64,000 bases of DNA from Octopus vulgaris (lineage: Eukaryota), in NCBI GenBank assembly GCA_951406725.2, contig OX597830.1:38998001-39062000 (forward strand), given 5' to 3'. The notes beneath the pieces were generated by a model. The model saw only the letters and a program-made list of their open reading frames with translations. It ran no database searches and had not been told where the DNA came from. Position numbers and translations under genes: made by a program. Shown piece by piece: positions 1,474 to 63,884 of the stretch. Position 1 is the stretch's first letter. Each line of letters opens with the position of its first letter.

Positions 1474-3370
1474 GGTTTCGAAGAAAAAGACTACACGTGG
1501 TATGAATAGGGGAAAAGTAAAAAGAAAATGCACATGAGATATAAAAAATAAAGGCTTTTTTTAAAGAAAAGCAAAGATATATATATTAAATGATTTTAGA
1601 TGGAATTATGAAGTACAAAGATCATTATTATGAATCATTATAGAGATTCAAAGTCATACCAATGTCTTCACCAACGTCAGTCTTCCATCATTTATTCATT
1701 ACTTACTCTATGCATGCATATATGTGTATGTGTTTGTGCGCACACGCTTGCATGCGTGTGTGCGCGTGTGTGTATGTGTGTGTGTGTGGTTGTGTATACA
1801 TAAATCGTAATAAGTATGGGGAAACAGCAATATTCGAATCGATAATTTGCATATATTTTCTTAATAAGATCCGACAGGTTCGACTGCGAATATCGTAGCT
1901 GCTATTGTACGCGTTGTTTAAGATGGATATGTGTTCATAACACTCGGAACTCATCATCTTAAATTTTGCAGTTCACCGTACATATTACGGGTAGAACACA
2001 ACATGCATAAAAGAATAGCACAAATTTGGTAAAATCCGTTCGTATACTTGGGATTCATTAATTTACGCAAACGCTCCACAAACGAAGCATACCAACACTG
2101 TTTAGTCATAGATCTATTTGATAAACCATTAACCATTCTATAGTAAAACATCATTAACATAAATCAACAGCGACTTCGTGATGTTAAGCTTTCAAAAATG
2201 GAAAATATACATTTTAACACACAGTAAATGCCATAAAGTTTCACTAAACATCATTTAGGTTATTTTATCAGTTGTAACATTCTGCGCTGATATTAAACTT
2301 CCGTAAAGCAATTTCAGCAACGTTTAACTCCAAAGCAATGTTTTTAATGGAGCGTTAATATCCTGCTTCTAAAACTGGAAATAGCTGGAAATAAATTAAA
2401 TCTGCAGACAGCACACCCTACGAAGGAATTAAAAATTTGAAACTTTGAAAAACTACAAATTACATTAAAATCTTTGTGTTTTTTTTAATGAAACCACCTG
2501 TCTAGATTAAAAATTTAAACTGGTCAGACATTTCATTTTCATCCATATGTTCAAGTATATTAAATTATATTCTATTATATATAAATCGTGTTAAAATGGA
2601 AGTTCATGTCATTTTTTTAAGAAAGAGTACGGAAATCAGAGCTTCACTAAGTTTAATGATAGAGTACACCTTTAAATAGTTTTATTTGCATTTGGAGAAA
2701 GGAACTCTGAAAAATGAACATATAATGAAATTCAAAAGAAAAATATATGTTTGTGTGTGTATTTGTGTGTATTTGTGTGTGTATATGTGTGTGTGTGTAT
2801 GTATGTGTGTATGTGTGCGTGCATGCTTGTGTATGCCCTTGTATATGTATTTCTTTCTGTGCACATATAGGCATATTCTCATACTGGAAATTATTGTCTA
2901 CTATCTGTAGGCTTGGAAATATTCCTTCGACTTATTATTATATTCAGTTTAATTTTACTTCTGTTATGTTAGTAAATATTACTGATTACTGTAATTTTAC
3001 ATTAGATAAAGTGGTGTTCTGATTTCTGTAATTTTTTTCCATATATCAGCCCCTGATTTAGGAGGTTTATGTGTAAATATGCTACAGATATAATATTGTT
3101 GCTTCAGGAAAAAACTGGCTTTATGTCATCGAATAAACTTTTACAGCTTTCAATGTATGTAAATAAAATATTTCAAGAATTTTAATTTATAATGTGAACA
3201 GATGGCATCGTCTTATAAATATATAATTTAGTGTTGCTTTTTTCTACTACTTAATACATGTGTATGTCTGTGTGGGGATGTGGGAGTTGTATGAGTGGGG
3301 TGTATGTGGGGCTGTGTGGGGTGTATGTGTGGGGATGTGCATATACATATACGTATGTATATGTGTATAC

Positions 3371-19493: not shown

Positions 19494-20447
19494 ACATATA
19501 TACATATATATATATATATATCTGTATACATAGATATGTGTGTGCTTATGTGTGCGTATTGATGGATAGATGGATGGATGGATGGATGGATGGAATATTT
19601 TTTCAGAGGCCCCTCGGTCTTAAGTGAATTCTGATGCAATCTGAAGTACCGGAGTCTGTAACAAGTCTGTATGTTTCTAATTAAAGATGCGTGCAATTTG
19701 AAGTATGTTATATAGTTTAGGCCTAAACACTTTTGCTAACAGAGTAGGAGTTGCCTCAAGTCTCTAAAATGCCATGCTGTGGAATCGAACCCTATTATCG
19801 TGATGCAGAGCAAATGTCTTAACCTTTTGGCTGTACTAGGCTTACTACATCCTTTATATATACACACCCACATGGATATATTCACACCTACATTATCTAC
19901 ATCAAGGATTGATTAATGAAACAACAAACACTCGCAGATGACATGTACATATGTAAATAGACGTAGATATATGCGTATATATATATATGTATATGTGTGT
20001 GTGCGTATGTGTATGTATGCGTGAGTGTGCGTGTGTGCACGCTTGTGTGTTTGTGTGAGTGTGTATGTATGTATTTATAGATAGATACATACATACATAC
20101 ATACATACATACGTATACAGAAAGAGAGAAGCATTAAACAAAAAAAAAACTTGGAGCACATGTAGTTTTCGTGTGGTTTGGCTTTCTCGATTCTGTTTTG
20201 GATGTTTCTGTCAGAAGAGAAACATTAATCATTTATGAAATTTTAAATATTGGTTAAGGATGGTTGAGAACTACATCTCGCTATACCAGTGCTGTGTACC
20301 GTATAAATTTATCATAGTAACAGTCACTCTCTCTATTCTTTCTCCGGTTCTCTCTCTCACACTCACTATATAAATGTGAATATATATATATATGGATATG
20401 TATGAATAAATAAATAAATGGAGTTGAACGAAGATGTTAATAAAATT

Positions 20448-20540
20448 CCTTTACTTTCGACATATGTTTCGAAGACAACATTGTTTTATTCCAAAGGAAT
20501 AAACGGTGTAAGATGCAATCTTCTCATCAGGAAAGAAAGG
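20448..20540 (-). ncRNA. Type I hammerhead ribozyme with a canonical core
   Basis: Minus strand cctttctttc-CTGATGA-GAAGAttgcat...atgttgTCTTC-GAAA-CATATG-TC-gaaagtaaagg. Stem I is 10 bp with a 1-nt bulge. Stem II is ~10 bp plus an inner 8-bp hairpin. Stem III is the palindrome ACATATGT. GUC cleavage is predicted between 20459 and 20458. Confidence 0.85.
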
Positions 20541-20555
20541 GAGCCTCTCTCACCA

Positions 20556-20648
20556 ACAAGACACTTGCCCAAGGTGCCACGCAGTGGGACTAAACCCGGA
20601 GCCCTGTGGTTCGTGAGAAAACTACTTACCACGCAACCACTCCTGCGC

Positions 20649-20649
<1 letters not shown>
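20556..20649 (-). mobile_element. SINE family B tRNA-like head
   Basis: Minus strand ggcgcaggagtggttgcgtgg (A-box-like)...ggtttagtccc (B-box-like)...caccttgggcaagtgtctt matches the head at 49903. Confidence 0.8.
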
Positions 20650-23899: not shown

Positions 23900-24132
23900 A
23901 AGGCGGCGAGCTGGCAGAAACGTTAGCACGCCGGACGAAATGCGTAGCCGTATTTCGTCTGCCGTTACGTTGTGAGTTCAAATTCCGCCGAGGTCGACTT
24001 TGCCTTTCATCCTTTCGGGGTCGGTAAATTAAGTACCAGTTACGGACTGGGGTCGATGTAATCGATTTAATTCGTTTGTCTGTCCTTGTTTGTCCCCTCT
24101 ATGTGTAGCCCCTTGTGGGTAATAAAGAAATA
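23900..24132 (+). mobile_element. Full-length SINE family A (tRNA-derived, CORE-like)
   Basis: Head ggcggcgagctggcagaa, B box gagttcaaattcc, core gcctttcatcctttcggggtcg. 15-bp TSD tatatatgttccgga at 23885-23899 and 24133-24147. Confidence 0.92.
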
Positions 24133-25404: not shown

Positions 25405-25793
25405 TGTGGAGGCGCAATGGCCCAGTGGTTAGGGCAGCGGACTCGCGGTCATAGGATTGCGGTTTCGATTCCCAGACCGGGCGTTGTGAGTGTTTATTGA
25501 GCGAAAACACCTAAAGCTCTACGAGGCTCCGGCAGGGGATGGTGGTGATCCCTGCTGTACTCTTTCACCACAACTTTCTCTCACTCTTACTTCCTGTTTC
25601 TGTTGTACCTGTATTTCAAAGGGCCGGCCTTGTCACTCTCTGTGTCACGCTGAATATCCCCGAGAACCACGTTAAGAGTACACGTGTCTGTGGAGTGCTC
25701 AGCCACTTACACGTTAATTTCACGAGCAGGTTGTTCCGTTGATTCGGATCAACCGGAACCCTCATCGTCGTAATCGACGGAGTGCTTCCATCC
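25405..25793 (+). mobile_element. Full-length SINE family C (tRNA-derived)
   Basis: A box tggcccagtgg, B box ggtttcgattccc. 12-bp TSD actactcctact at 25393-25404 and 25794-25805. Near-identical to 51022-51387. Confidence 0.92.
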
Positions 25794-26703
25794 ACTACTC
25801 CTACTGTTGCGCACACCAAACACATTAGACTGTATGAAGAAAAGAGTCATCCAACTGACTGGCATAAGTCACTCATGGTGTCAAACCAGCTTCTTGCTCA
25901 AATATGGATATCTTCCTCTCTTTGTTTTTTTCTTCCCTAATAAGTTTTGGTACTAGGGACTAGTTGGATATACGTTACCCTCACTGAGGTATTCTCAGCG
26001 TATCAGTCTCTTCTCTCAACATCATTGTACATGTCAAACCTCCAAATCCTGCATTTAACAAAATATCCAGTCCTTCCTCCTTAATGTAACGGTCTTCTGG
26101 AATCCCTTATTTGCTTTTGTTGTTGTTTTTTTCTTTTTGTTTTGGTGTAGTTAATGAGTTGAAAATGTTTCCAAAAACTATTTACAAGATCAATCTCATC
26201 TTTTCAGGAGGACATACAAGTGACAGAGGCACTGCCCCTTTCATTAACACACAACAAGCAAAATTACACTAGATATAGTATTCTACGTACACTTACTAAA
26301 ATATTGAAGGACAAATTGCTGTAATCTAGAATAACTTCATGACTGAAGAGATCTGACATGCTCTTATCTTCTTTCTATGTGTATTTCATATCCGAGAATT
26401 TATTGAGAGTATCGGTGTAATTCTGAGAAGAATATATTTTAGTATTTACTTATGGGTTCAAAGGATGGCTTGGAAAGTATTAGAGATATTTATTCCTGCT
26501 TCGCTTGTTCGACGTCTGGACATCGTCGAAATCAATTTTCCCATTCATCCTTCCGGAATCGGCAAAGAGGCTAATCAAAATAAAGTGTACTGGAAGAATC
26601 ACCGGAGCACGAGCTGGATGCTTTGCAATATTTCTTTCGGCCCTTTGCATTTTCAGTTCAAGTTTTGCTGTAGCCTGGTAATTTGCAGAAATATTATGTT
26701 TTA

Positions 26704-27083
26704 AGGCAGCGAGCTGGCAGAAACGTTAGCACACCGGGCAAAATGCTTAGCGGTATTTCGTCTGCTGTTACGTTCTGAGTTCAAATTCCGCCGAGGTCGA
26801 CTTTGCCTTTCATCCTTTCGGCGTCGATTAAATAAGTACCAGTTACGCACTGGAGTCGATGTAATCGACTTAATCCGTTTGTCTGTCCTTGTTTGTCCAC
26901 TCTGTGTTTAGCCCCTTGTGGTATTTCGTCTGTCTTTACGTTCTGAGTTCAAATTCCGCCGAGGTCGACTTTACCTTTCATCATTTCTGCGGCGATAAAT
27001 TAAGTACCAGTTATGTACTGGAGTCGATCTAATCGGCTGCACCCTCCTTAAAATTTTCACGCTTTGTGTCTAGAGTAGAAAAA
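26704..27083 (+). mobile_element. Composite (core-duplicated) SINE family A
   Basis: Two tandem gttctgagttcaaattccgccgaggtcgacttt cores; same layout as 30854-31231. Confidence 0.88.
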
Positions 27084-27177
27084 AATATCTAGGAATATTT
27101 GTCGATCAATATTTCAAAGTCCAGATTCTATCAGCTATATAATCATTCCCAGAAGCATGACATTTCCACCGTTATTA

Positions 27178-30540: not shown

Positions 30541-30853
30541 AATATATATATATATGTCTGTTGTATGCGTGTGTATGTGCTCGAATGTGTGTGTGCGTGG
30601 GGGGAAAATTAAGTGACAGCTAGTCATTGAAAACATAAGGTTTGTTGTACAGCTGGGATTTGTCACATTTTCTAATTAGACTTTTGCTTTGGAATTAAGC
30701 AATAATGTTGCTAAATCCATTAGGTCGAATTATCGATATTTTCCGAATCTCACTTTCAAATTAATTTGCTGCAATGTCATGCGTCTGGGAATGATTATAT
30801 AGCTGATAGAATCTGGACTTTAAAATATAGATCGACAAATATTCCTAGATATT

Positions 30854-31231
30854 CTTTTCTACTCTAGGCACAAAGGCTGAAAATTTTGAAGAGGATGCAG
30901 CCGATTAGATCACCACTAGTACGCAACTGAAACTTAATTTATCGACGCAGAAAGGATGAAAGGCAAAGTCGACCTCGGCGGATTTTGAACTCAGAACATA
31001 GCGGCAGACGTAATACCTGTTTCTTTACTACCCACAAGGGGCTAAACATAGAGAGGACAAACAAGGACAGACAAACGGATTAAGTCGATCACATCGACCC
31101 CAGCGCGTAACTGGTACTTAATTTATCGACCCCGAAAGGATGAAAAGCAAAGTCGACCTCGGCGGAATTTGAACTCAGAACGGCTACGCATTTCGCCCGG
31201 CGTGCTAACTTTGATGCCAGCTCGCCACCTT
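30854..31231 (-). mobile_element. Composite SINE family A with TSD
   Basis: 17-bp TSD aaatattcctagatatt at 30837-30853 and 31232-31248. Confidence 0.92.
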
Positions 31232-31499
31232 AAATATTCCTAGATATTACCAAAGAGATGCAGATCAATATGTATAACATTTCAGTTAAACAAAAATCAT
31301 TAATTAACACAAATAAGCCCTCGGCGGAAGCGAATCTCCCTAACGACACAATATCAGTTTTTACAAGCGCTTAAAGTTTGATCCACTAAAGAAACATTGA
31401 ACATTAAAATCTTTCGCGAGTATCTGAGATCATTTAGTAATAGGTTTGCAAATATATTAGTCGAAAGCATAAAACAATGAAAATTCACAGTGTTACAAG

Positions 31500-32549: not shown

Positions 32550-32952
32550 TATTCTTTCACTGCTTTCAGTCATTTGACTGTGGCCATGCTAGAACAACGC
32601 CTTGAAGTGTTTTAGTGGAAGAAATCGACCCCAGGACCTATTCTGTGTATGCATAGTACTTATACTATTGGTGTCTTGTGGCGAACCGCTAAGTTACGGG
32701 AACGTAATTACACCAATAATGGCGAAGCATAAGCAGAAACACAAAGACACTTATATATGTGTGTGAGCGTGTGTGTGTGACTGTGTGTGCGCGCGCGTGT
32801 ATACAACGAGCTTCTTTCAGTTTCCGTCTACCAAAATCCACTTGCAAGGCTTTGTTCGGTCCGTAGTTAGAATAGAAGACATATATTAAAGGTGCCACTC
32901 AGTGGATGTGAACGCGGAGACACGTGGTTGGAAAGCAAGCTTCTTAACAGGC

Positions 32953-32953
<1 letters not shown>
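32550..32953 (-). mobile_element. SINE family B
   Basis: tttcagtcatttgactgtggccatgct tail and cttctttcagtttccgtctaccaaaatcc core are reverse complements of the 49903-50390 copy. Confidence 0.85.
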
Positions 32954-41489: not shown

Positions 41490-42060
41490 GATTTTTACGG
41501 TTCCATTGATAAATTGGAACTGTGTCTTCGAATTAGTTTCCTCCTTTCAGGTTTTGAGAAGCCTAATTTCTCGAGATTGGTATTTAGGCTGCGTGTTACT
41601 TATCCCAAGGCCCTAATAATTACAACTATAAACCTACACTTCTAATCTGGATAGAGTATCTACAGATTTCTCAGTAGTTCAATGTAGGTATTCACTTTTC
41701 CACTGATCTTCAGCTTTATGTTAACATCTGCTGGGCAACTAATCTCCACAACTGTACACAGTTTCTCTTTTCTATCCCAAATCATTATATCAAGTCTCCT
41801 GTGCTTACATTTTAATGAGCTTTTCCCTGGGACATTCCACCAGTACTCCTTTTTATTATGAGTGGCTATGGCCTCCACCATAATATGGATTCTTATTTCT
41901 TTGTCCTTGGGGCTATCCTTCCAACGGCTTTCATTATAGAGTGTCCTAGCTACAACACCATGCCGAATCGGCAAATAAAACCGTGATGATATTTTCGGAT
42001 AACTGCCTATGATGTGGGAGATATCTTCGGTCTTAACTCCACAAAGTGTCCTTCCGTTGT
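41490..42060 (-). pseudogene. C-terminal fragment of an RLE-type non-LTR retrotransposon (R4/NeSL-like)
   Basis: Degenerate zinc knuckle CG..EDISHIIG, RH motif (IRHGVVA), RRLDIMIWD...VEISCP (PD..E nuclease core), K..Y..L, and ALG further downstream. Confidence 0.85.
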
Positions 42061-42129
42061 CCCATTTTACTGCTTTTCCTGCATCTCTATCCCTTTTGTG
42101 CATCAAGTATTTAGTTCCTCTATGTATGC

Positions 42130-42162
<33 letters not shown>

Positions 42163-42949
42163 TGTATGTATGTATGTATGTATGTATGTATGTATGTGTG
42201 TGTGTATGTATTTAAATATATGCGAATATATATACATAGAGAGCTATTACCCCCTATTATGCCGATGATGTACAGGACATAAGAAGTGAGGTTCATACGT
42301 TTCATAGGTAACTATGTTAAATTTAACTGGTGTAATTATTCCAAAAATATTGTAAGAAAACTTTTAGCGCTTCCGCTTTTTACGTTCTTGTGTATAGATT
42401 AACTGTGAAGCTTTCCAATTGTACAAACAACTGCAGTAGAATTTTATTAACTTAATTTTGGACCAATTGTATGTATTTAAGTAACAGTTTACATTCAAAT
42501 TTATTCTGAAATACGAAAATACACAGCATCGTATATTACCCCAGTACCCAACACACATCATGTTTCTATTTTGGCATCGTAGTTTTTCCGGATCATTACA
42601 GATGAGGTAAAACGTTGTGACTGAAGGTGAAAATATTCCCGGGTAGTTAAGGATATATTATGAACCGTCCTAAACCATGTCACACAGGAGAAAGCACTAC
42701 GGGTTAAATTTTTAAGATATCATGTAGATCACTTCTTCGAGCAGTACTTCTGATTATTTTCCAAACATTTAAAATGATTGCTTAAATTAAATATTAGGAA
42801 ATTATTTAAACACAAATTTTAGATATAACGTTCGAGTGATACTTTACTTTTATTGGAGCTTGAAAGCTTCACAAACACAACGTATTCAATAAAATCGAAG
42901 AGCATCCACGCGAGTGATCTTCCTGCTAGGAATGTCAGCCGTATCTCCA

Positions 42950-49902: not shown

Positions 49903-50066
49903 TAGGCGTGGCTGTGAGCTAACAAGCTTGCTTCTCAACCATATAGTTTCAGGTTCAGTCCCAATGCGTTGCACCTTGGGCAGGTGTGTTCTGCTGTAGC
50001 CTCAGGTCAGCCCAAAACCTTGTGAGCGGATTTGGTAGACGGAAACTGAAAGAAGCCCGTCGTGTG

Positions 50067-50100
<34 letters not shown>

Positions 50101-51021: not shown

Positions 51022-51387
51022 GAAGCACTCCGTTGGTTACGACGATGAGGGTTCCGGTTGATCCGAATCAACGGAACAGCCTGCTCGTGAAATTAATGTG
51101 TAAGTGGCTGAGCACTCCACATACACGTGTACCCTTAACGTAGTTCTCGGAGATATTCAGCGTGACACAGAGAGTGACAAGGCCGGCCCCTTGAAATACA
51201 GGTACAACAGAAACAGGAAGTAAGAGTGAGAGAAAGTTGTGGTGAAAGAGTACAGCAGGGATCACCACCATCCCCTACCGGAGCCTCGTGGAGCTTTTTA
51301 GGTGTTTTCACAACGCCCGGTCTGGGAATCGAAACCGCGATCCTATGACCGCCGCGAGTCCGCTGCCCTAACCACTGGGCCATTGCA
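51022..51387 (-). mobile_element. Full-length SINE family C
   Basis: Reverse complement of 25405-25793. 11-bp TSD tttagttatat at 51011-51021 and 51388-51398. Confidence 0.92.
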
Positions 51388-54549: not shown

Positions 54550-55238
54550 TGCAGGAAACTCCTTGCGTTTGTGGATACAGAGAGGTTCACTGTGGGCACT
54601 GAGATGAATCGCAGGAATTCTCAAGTGATTGCATATAACCCTTCTGACGTTCCGTGTTTGAAACTAAGAATCCTGCCTCTGTGATGGTATTTGGAGCCAT
54701 GGCAAGTGATGGAAGTGTCATGGGTCCATATTTTATTGTGTCTGGCTTGAAGATCGGTGCAAAGGAGTATTTGAACATCCCGAAGAACTCTCTGTTACCT
54801 TGGATGGAGCAGAAGTTTAAACTTAACAATGTGTTGCTTATCCAAGATTCTGCACCAAGCCATGACTCACAAGTAACACAGGCCCTCAATGGTGAGAAGG
54901 TGCCATTTTTTGTGAGGGGCAACATCTTGCCTGGTAATAACTCAGATCTTAGCCTTCTTGATTACTTTTTATGTGGAATATTTCAAGCAAAGACCAATGC
55001 TTCACCACACTTGAGTGTCAAAAGTTTGAAGACCTGCATCACTGTGGAAACTGCAAATACATTTTGTTGTTGTGTGGAGGGAATAATTGACCAAAAGGGG
55101 GCAGCCATATTGAGTGATAAATGTTTGTGTCGTAAACAATGTTACATTAAAATTGTATCTGTCTACTACCAATATTTTAGTATTTGTAACCAGTTTTATA
55201 CATTGTAAACATTTTCTCAATTTATCTGCCCGAACCTG
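54550..55238 (+). mobile_element. maT-like (DD37D) Tc1/mariner transposase remnant with its right end
   Basis: AFVDTERFTV (first D, other frame), VMVFG, QDSAPSH...SDLSLLDYF with 37 residues between the second and third D. Ends ...gcccgaacctg|TA in (TA)n. Confidence 0.88.
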
Positions 55239-63689: not shown

Positions 63690-63884
63690 TTTGGGACAGA
63701 AGCAGGAAGAAAGAGCGAGAGAAAGTTTTGATGGAAGAGTACAGTGGGATTCAACACCATCCCTCGCTAGAGCCTTGTGGAGCTTAGGTGTTTTTGCTCA
63801 ATAAACACTCACAATGCCCGGTCTGGGAATCGAAACCGCGTTCTTACGACCGCGAGTCCGCTGCCCTAACCACTGGGCCATTGT
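63690..63884 (-). mobile_element. SINE family C, 5' half
   Basis: gggaatcgaaaccgcg...gagtccgctgccctaaccactgggccattg is the reverse complement of the family C head. Confidence 0.88.

Follow-up and report, generated by a model that had tools for sequence, protein, structure and literature searches.

Type I hammerhead ribozymes have been described in the pseudo-LTRs (pLTRs) of Penelope-like elements, where the accessible sections of the report place them, with a small palindromic helix III, in a repeat after the open reading frame for reverse transcriptase (RT) and endonuclease, mostly as single truncated motifs or opposite-strand pairs (Cervera and de la Pena, 2014; PMC4209133). For Neptune-type Penelope-like elements, the available text of two papers gives an RT with a C-terminal GIY-YIG-type endonuclease, 5' truncation with inverted partners, an optional 3' extension and TA microsatellites as targets (Arkhipova et al., 2013, PMC3846280; Craig et al., 2021, PMC8557442). 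In Schistosoma, the repeats called Sm-alpha and Sj-alpha join a Pol III-type head to a type I hammerhead, and Sm-alpha is described, in the parts at hand, as multicopy, often tandem and transcribed (PMC6765202; PMC2770079). Metazoan non-LTR retrozymes are likewise reported, in the portions available, as short non-coding repeats with a type I hammerhead of Penelope origin, arranged in tandem with at least two hammerheads (PMC7761336; bioRxiv 10.64898/2026.07.22.740005). From octopus, tRNA-derived SINEs are on record (Ohshima and Okada, 1994, as cited in the accessible part of PMC4758252).

The locus considered here places a SINE head directly before a hammerhead, both on the minus strand of the window, i.e., the whole 64-kb stretch of Octopus vulgaris DNA that was analysed (Table 1). 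The initial annotation had offered two readings of this arrangement, a chance SINE/pLTR junction or a compact self-cleaving Pol III cassette; the former gained support, while the latter failed at the level of a repeat family. The hammerhead is best explained as the ribozyme of a Penelope pLTR, carried by a 167-nt truncated copy that inserted at a TA-rich site beside an older SINE head and was joined to it via the shared sequence TGTCTT. A probability of roughly 0.8 is given to this reading. The meeting of the two pieces was probably due to chance, and judged by genome comparison 20649-20397 does not appear to be a family-level Pol III cassette.

Table 1. Features of the SINE-Penelope locus (window positions).
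Feature	Position	Strand	Remarks
SINE head; the opening 92 nt of an abundant A/B-box-like SINE	20558-20649	-	stops where the family body would begin
A-box-like motif	20629-20639	-	read against the Pol III consensus; off the family majority at 20636 and 20633
T4 run, possible early Pol III terminator	20618-20621	-	created by two bases that depart from the family majority
B-box-like motif with C-to-T at 20592	20587-20596	-	from comparison with the majority
6-nt microhomology TGTCTT, common to SINE and Penelope-like element	20558-20563	-	junction
5'-truncated pseudo-LTR / 3' end of Penelope-like element	20397-20563	-	167 nt; -33 to +133 from CUGAUGA; 97-99% identity to other copies
Hammerhead stem I, 5' strand	20540-20531	-	10 bp with 20458-20448, one bulged U
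Hammerhead CUGAUGA core	20530-20524	-	sequence reading
Hammerhead stem II region	20523-20471	-	53 nt; inner hairpin of 8 bp at 20503-20485
Hammerhead GAAA core	20470-20467	-	sequence reading
Palindrome ACAUAUGU (stem III / loop 3)	20467-20460	-	predicted dimer helix; stem III = 2 bp
Hammerhead GUC triplet	ends at 20459	-	predicted cut 20459/20458
Hammerhead stem I, 3' strand	20458-20448	-	pairs with 20540-20531
Second T4 run	20442-20445	-	13 nt past the cut site; Penelope family sequence; also in other copies
TA-rich run, 3' end of Penelope piece	20381-20396	.	presumed target

The hammerhead motif is real. Read from the sequence, 20540-20448 form a type I hammerhead with the full core, as CUGANGA, GAAA and an NUH triplet follow one another in order and the ends close stem I. 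A type I hammerhead descriptor finds this one site in the 64-kb window and none in 30 locally dinucleotide-shuffled windows. The core bases, the 10-bp stem I, the long stem II with its inner hairpin and the palindromic stem III that the initial annotation had listed were all recovered, and the cut site that it had predicted agrees with the layout of the motif. The word "canonical" was too strong, since stem II holds 53 nt and Rfam scans of the window left the hammerhead model unmatched at E values up to 1 and up to 10, returning microsatellite noise only. This miss is likely due to the long stem II.

The ribozyme travels with a Penelope-like element, which supports the earlier pointer to dimeric hammerheads of the Penelope type. 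In the 2.8-Gb assembly, which is rich in TA microsatellites, the query 20556-20405 gave 2,491 candidates, and among the best 40 scored the top identity was 97-99%. A 28-nt hammerhead motif has 978 genome matches at up to one mismatch (reversed control: 0), and the family appears to number about a thousand copies. At 29 other top loci, homology with the window ends at or inside 20563, and in none of them does a SINE head abut it. In all eight long loci (L106-L113), which were chosen for long open frames and show RT motifs in the longer ones, the same hammerhead piece lies about 250-300 nt past an RT-endonuclease ORF. Going upstream from the hammerhead, the copies have a 3' region in common and, beyond it, an ORF. 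Sequence comparison thus assigns 20563-20397 to a Penelope pLTR, part of a Penelope-like element and not of the SINE.

The protein of the long copies is recognized with varying success. Its look-alikes in the Atlas are of RT type (0.96), with RVT_1 in 16-46% of the members of several clusters, and those of its C-terminal part comprise unnamed clusters and one cluster with 11% GIY-YIG members (0.94). Pfam left the RT unmatched on the long-copy ORFs and gave only a weak GIY-YIG match (E 0.045), and a PDB sequence search did not recognize the RT of the long copies. An unnamed RT-endonuclease protein of 705 aa aligns piecewise over RT, thumb and endonuclease at 26-44% identity, and two named homologues of the element's protein come from Octopus species.

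Copies of the family are commonly truncated at their 5' ends and precisely bounded at their 3' ends. In a set of 30 pattern-picked copies (the first 30 exact matches among those listed), 15 have an inverted 5' partner, two are in tandem, nine abut foreign flank and four run off the reference end. In ten of the 30, the start lies no more than 75 nt upstream of the core; the window copy, spanning -33 to +133, is an ordinary short truncation. The 3' ends fall at +132/133 or +282 from the core, with TA after, in 55 of 59 entries, not all of them independent, as some are the two arms of one insertion and L017 is identical to L079. In 50 of the 58 copy entries, a TA run comes after the 3' end. The same anatomy is given for Penelope-like elements in the accessible parts of PMC8557442 and PMC3846280. 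The family's two fixed 3' ends are separated by about 149 nt, each lying well 3' of the predicted cut. Ends past the cut mean that inserted copies hold sequence that a cleaved linear RNA would lose, which would fit an uncleaved, circular or multimeric template. Fragments of further retroelements also occur beside Penelope copies at three loci, namely L015 (minus-strand frame at about 2853-3152), L016 (1-762) and L022 (199-468), and two of them look GIY-YIG-like by eye.

Folded in isolation, the hammerhead forms stem I with a probability of 0.98-1.0 and stem II with a probability of 0.71. The palindrome ACAUAUGU is computed to form a self-duplex at -7.0 kcal/mol, against +2.4 kcal/mol as a hairpin, and its core GAAACATATGTC is intact in 21 of the 30 pattern-picked copies. 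Such a weak stem III is described for motifs thought to act as dimers, and low activity in vitro is given for related Penelope hammerheads, in the available text of PMC4209133. In a transcript running from the head to the second T4 run, the hammerhead fold is predicted to lie 7.0 kcal/mol above the best fold, and the pairing probability of stems I and II is at most 0.01. The native contexts of six family copies put the hammerhead fold 1.6-7.7 kcal/mol above the best one (4-8 in four of the six); since most native contexts share the unfavourable fold, it is not specific to the window locus. For the Penelope sequence at 20563-20523, pairing with stem I and the core is predicted, and in most of the copies tested this would yield another, inactive fold. 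This alternative might be a switch or a mere folding artefact.

Over 29 copies, 97.7% of the stem cells are paired. Two-sided stem changes within the family amount to 0 of 30 pairs, without excess over shuffles, in a set whose 5' 28 nt were fixed by the search pattern. Hammerheads at other loci retrieved from the genome retain both the core and a palindrome of 8 nt as stem III on unrelated stems, and this retention across families speaks for the fold as a selected design. Seven descriptor matches lie outside the family, in six loci (L007, L086, L109, L113, L135 and L150), of which four have a long stem II and several an 8-nt palindromic stem III. L113 holds an inverted hammerhead pair, and L150 a minimal hammerhead form. 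The hammerheads of these six loci probably belong to other Penelope families.

The other half of the junction comes from a far more numerous repeat, as a 12-mer of the SINE family has 160,561 genome matches. Twenty-nine other SINE copies examined match over the head, after which nearly all of them run into a common body past TGTCTT. The best other head is 93% identical (among the best 40 scored of 750 candidates), and a 38-nt stretch of the head has no other match in the genome at up to three mismatches. As to a possible tRNA origin of the head, ARAGORN found no tRNA genes in five loci, and the Rfam scan left the tRNA model unmatched; the A/B-box-like motifs were seen by eye. The T4 run noted earlier inside the head is indeed present, at 20621-20618. 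Its T at 20621 occurs in three, and its T at 20618 in one, of 19 unselected SINE copies. The B-box position of 20592 is C in all 19 of these copies and in all seven of the nearest subfamily. This C is critical for TFIIIC binding, and a T4 run can terminate Pol III transcription. Against the majority of the nearest subfamily (seven copies), the head differs at seven of 92 positions, one of them a 3:4 split, and the Penelope piece has one to two private changes in 161, a contrast with a Fisher p of 0.004-0.013 from small samples. SINE copies of the head's family often adjoin TA.

Further repeats lie elsewhere in the window, where the repeat search was dominated by microsatellites. Two further copies of the head's SINE, both diverged, lie at 49904-50069 and 32889-32953. 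Dispersed repeats in both orientations, with 84-92% identity, were observed at 23900-24130, 26700-27164 and 30773-31234, and likewise at 25414-25788, 51022-51386 and 63696-63883. By eye, the open frames at 41663-42211 (minus strand) and 54648-55205 (plus strand) resemble pieces of a non-LTR element and of a DNA transposase.

At the junction itself, homology to the SINE extends to 20558 and that to the Penelope element begins at 20563, an overlap of 6 nt. The spacer of about 15 nt that the initial annotation had placed between head and ribozyme does not exist; those nucleotides are Penelope sequence. Junction-pattern searches of the genome found the exact head-hammerhead junction only once in 2.8 Gb. 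A second match with two mismatches (L032) proved to be a SINE with an internal deletion and without a hammerhead. Recurrence was seen only in another form. A wider pattern gave four more sites on a single contig, C29 (L116-L119), which have a spacing just above 60 nt and in which the head is followed by a TA run and then by Penelope sequence from about -45 to the +282-type end. Because these sites have one junction and share kilobases of flank at 95-99%, they represent one event multiplied by segmental duplication. In the C29 copies, the B box is intact, stem I is weakened and stem II contains a T4 run.

On C29, the SINE is interrupted about 10 nt or less from where it is in the window, and both breaks lie near the same TA-containing site, a coincidence slightly beyond uniform chance and a point against the preferred reading. 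Under a roughly uniform distribution, a head motif no more than 60 nt upstream of a hammerhead would be expected in 0.17 cases if 3 of 30 copies have nearby foreign flank, and in 1.7 cases at most. By this rough estimate, with the prompting case left aside, one further head-hammerhead event is unremarkable. SINE heads that end in (TA)n at this very spot are found at 71 exact sites; 12 of the 30 inspected have no BLAST match to the SINE remainder in the next 900 nt, and in none of the 30 does the Penelope family follow. A head-(TA)n site would be a ready target, and it would explain why the SINE remainder is missing downstream of the window copy.

In other runs, under three organism labels (A, B and C), contigs link the unique downstream flank to the 3' end of the Penelope piece with 0-4 differences, and they reach 33 nt into the element in X2, X5 and X6 and 28 nt in X4. 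With the 3' junction present in other runs, the insertion is not private to the assembly. Among the contigs listed, from seven distinct runs, none bridges the SINE-Penelope 5' junction. Apparent empty-allele joints in the contigs derived from other SINE copies with AT-rich sides of 20-25 nt. As no empty allele was found in the contigs of other runs, the order of events is read from divergence alone. Two runs guessed to be RNA contain sequence of the Penelope family, in a form that cannot be assigned to the window locus.

Taken together, the preferred reading would proceed as follows. The endonuclease of the element would nick a (TA)n tract, cDNA synthesis would begin at the +133 end and stop early, and the cDNA end would anneal to the SINE at TGTCTT. 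The joining would remove only a few bases if the head already ended in (TA)n, or the SINE body if it did not. A precedent is given in the accessible text of PMC3846280, in which one rotifer Penelope copy was joined at its 5' end by microhomology and without target duplication. In the octopus family, overlaps of 4-9 nt occur in only 5 of 29 inverted junction entries, so microhomology joining would be a minority route. In the parent element, going by the literature, the ribozyme would cut a precursor RNA past GUC as a dimer via its palindromic stem III. At the window locus, the damaged promoter, the T4 run ahead of the ribozyme, the lack of a partner hammerhead in the window and a predicted competing hairpin make it likely that the ribozyme is a passenger.

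Other routes to the same arrangement have to be weighed. The head is complete to its first base, the SINE remainder is missing downstream and TA/TG microsatellites flank the entire unit on both sides, all of which would be accounted for by a chimeric retrotranscript, in which RT starts at +133 and switches at TGTCTT to SINE RNA, and head and hammerhead insert jointly in one microsatellite. Capture of host DNA by Penelope elements has been reported as well (PMC3846280, in the part available). Against this route, the divergence of the head is several times that of the Penelope piece, and the head lacks a close sibling. Its altered B box and T4 run, if already there, would have made it a poor source of template, and SINE copies of the family often stand beside TA anyway. 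Joint insertion is therefore unlikely. The 6-nt microhomology could also mark a later deletion. A complete SINE would first have adjoined a longer Penelope copy, and microhomology-mediated repair at TGTCTT would then have excised the body of the former and the upstream part of the latter. Microhomology deletions are common in Penelope copies, according to the accessible text of PMC3846280. A truncation up to 75 nt upstream of the core is, however, normal for the family, as in the ten copies counted above, and a second event is unneeded. This route, which is quite unlikely, would in any case leave the same non-functional junction.

A different type of explanation grants the unit a function. As in Sm-alpha of Schistosoma, the head might drive an RNA of about 190 nt that the hammerhead trims at 20459. 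The layout is suitable, with the head leading into an intact core and a T4 run 13 nt past the cut; the one private change in the ribozyme (20482) falls on an unpaired position, and the locus is common to three organism labels. Against this stand the single copy, the C-to-T change in the B box and the early T4, and stem III needs a partner hammerhead, of which the 64-kb window has none. The fold energy and the near-absence of stem I/II pairing in the long transcript also count against it, although they are not specific to this locus. Active function at this single site is the least probable of the explanations considered, and its family-level version, the headline reading of the initial annotation, is contradicted by a junction unique in the genome, a ribozyme carried by a Penelope-like element, a mutated B box and the T4 run in the head. 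A related scenario is that an Sm-alpha-like unit was born twice, with head and Penelope hammerhead meeting at the same TA-containing spot in the window and on C29, and with a Pol III-driven self-trimming RNA mobilized by the Penelope RT and endonuclease rather than by a LINE. This scenario is highly improbable; if correct, it would document how the joining of a Pol III head with a ribozyme can give rise to a new mobile family. The insertion of a truncated pLTR beside an older SINE head remains the preferred reading.

The junction in itself matters little: hammerheads in Penelope pLTRs are already on record, and a SINE of 160,000 copies should meet one of them once by chance. Of some value is the observation that the genome contains roughly a thousand hammerheads which have a 53-nt stem II and are missed by Rfam, plus further families built on the same plan. 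The literature searched, with passages of PMC8557442 and PMC13282606, holds no description of octopus hammerheads in its accessible parts; subscription papers, Repbase and supplements lay outside the search, and the octopus family may already be listed in Repbase or in paper supplements.

Of the described systems, Sm-alpha and Sj-alpha resemble the window locus in the order of their parts, a Pol III-type head and then a type I hammerhead. Unlike the multicopy Sm-alpha, the window combines pieces of two families at one locus; there is no multicopy unit, and the promoter is not intact and contains an internal T4 run (comparison with the available portions of PMC6765202 and PMC2770079). Retrozymes share with the window piece its short, non-coding form and a type I hammerhead of Penelope origin. 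They are repeats in tandem, whereas the window has one truncated pLTR at the element's normal 3' end, with a single hammerhead in 64 kb and no second copy found in the window by BLAST (PMC7761336; bioRxiv 10.64898/2026.07.22.740005, as accessible). The pLTR hammerheads in the available text of PMC4209133 agree with the window motif in topology and in the small palindromic helix III, and with its family in placement after the RT-endonuclease ORF and in a dispersal mostly as single truncated motifs or opposite-strand pairs. They differ in the helices: here stem I measures 10 bp and the region of stem II, which holds an inner hairpin, spans 53 nt, against 4-5 bp and 7-8 bp in Schistosoma, and the window hammerhead keeps G10.1-C11.1 and lacks the extra unpaired base before stem II.

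The octopus family is like Neptune-type elements in its RT and C-terminal GIY-YIG-type endonuclease, its 5' truncation with inverted partners, its optional 3' extension and its TA targets, although the extension measures about 149 nt compared with 30-40 nt in the Neptune type (PMC8557442; PMC3846280, accessible sections). The cysteine-rich linker given there as a Neptune mark is absent from all eight long copies, which have an Asn-rich stretch with one cysteine between RT thumb and endonuclease, while the nearest full-length homologues, the unnamed proteins P0003 and P0004, carry it. Since this defining linker is absent, membership of the family in the Neptune clade is not claimed. In the accessible part of PMC8557442, the linker is proposed to mediate microsatellite targeting in Neptune elements. 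A family that ends in (TA)n without a cysteine-rich linker thus offers a natural test of the linker-targeting idea.
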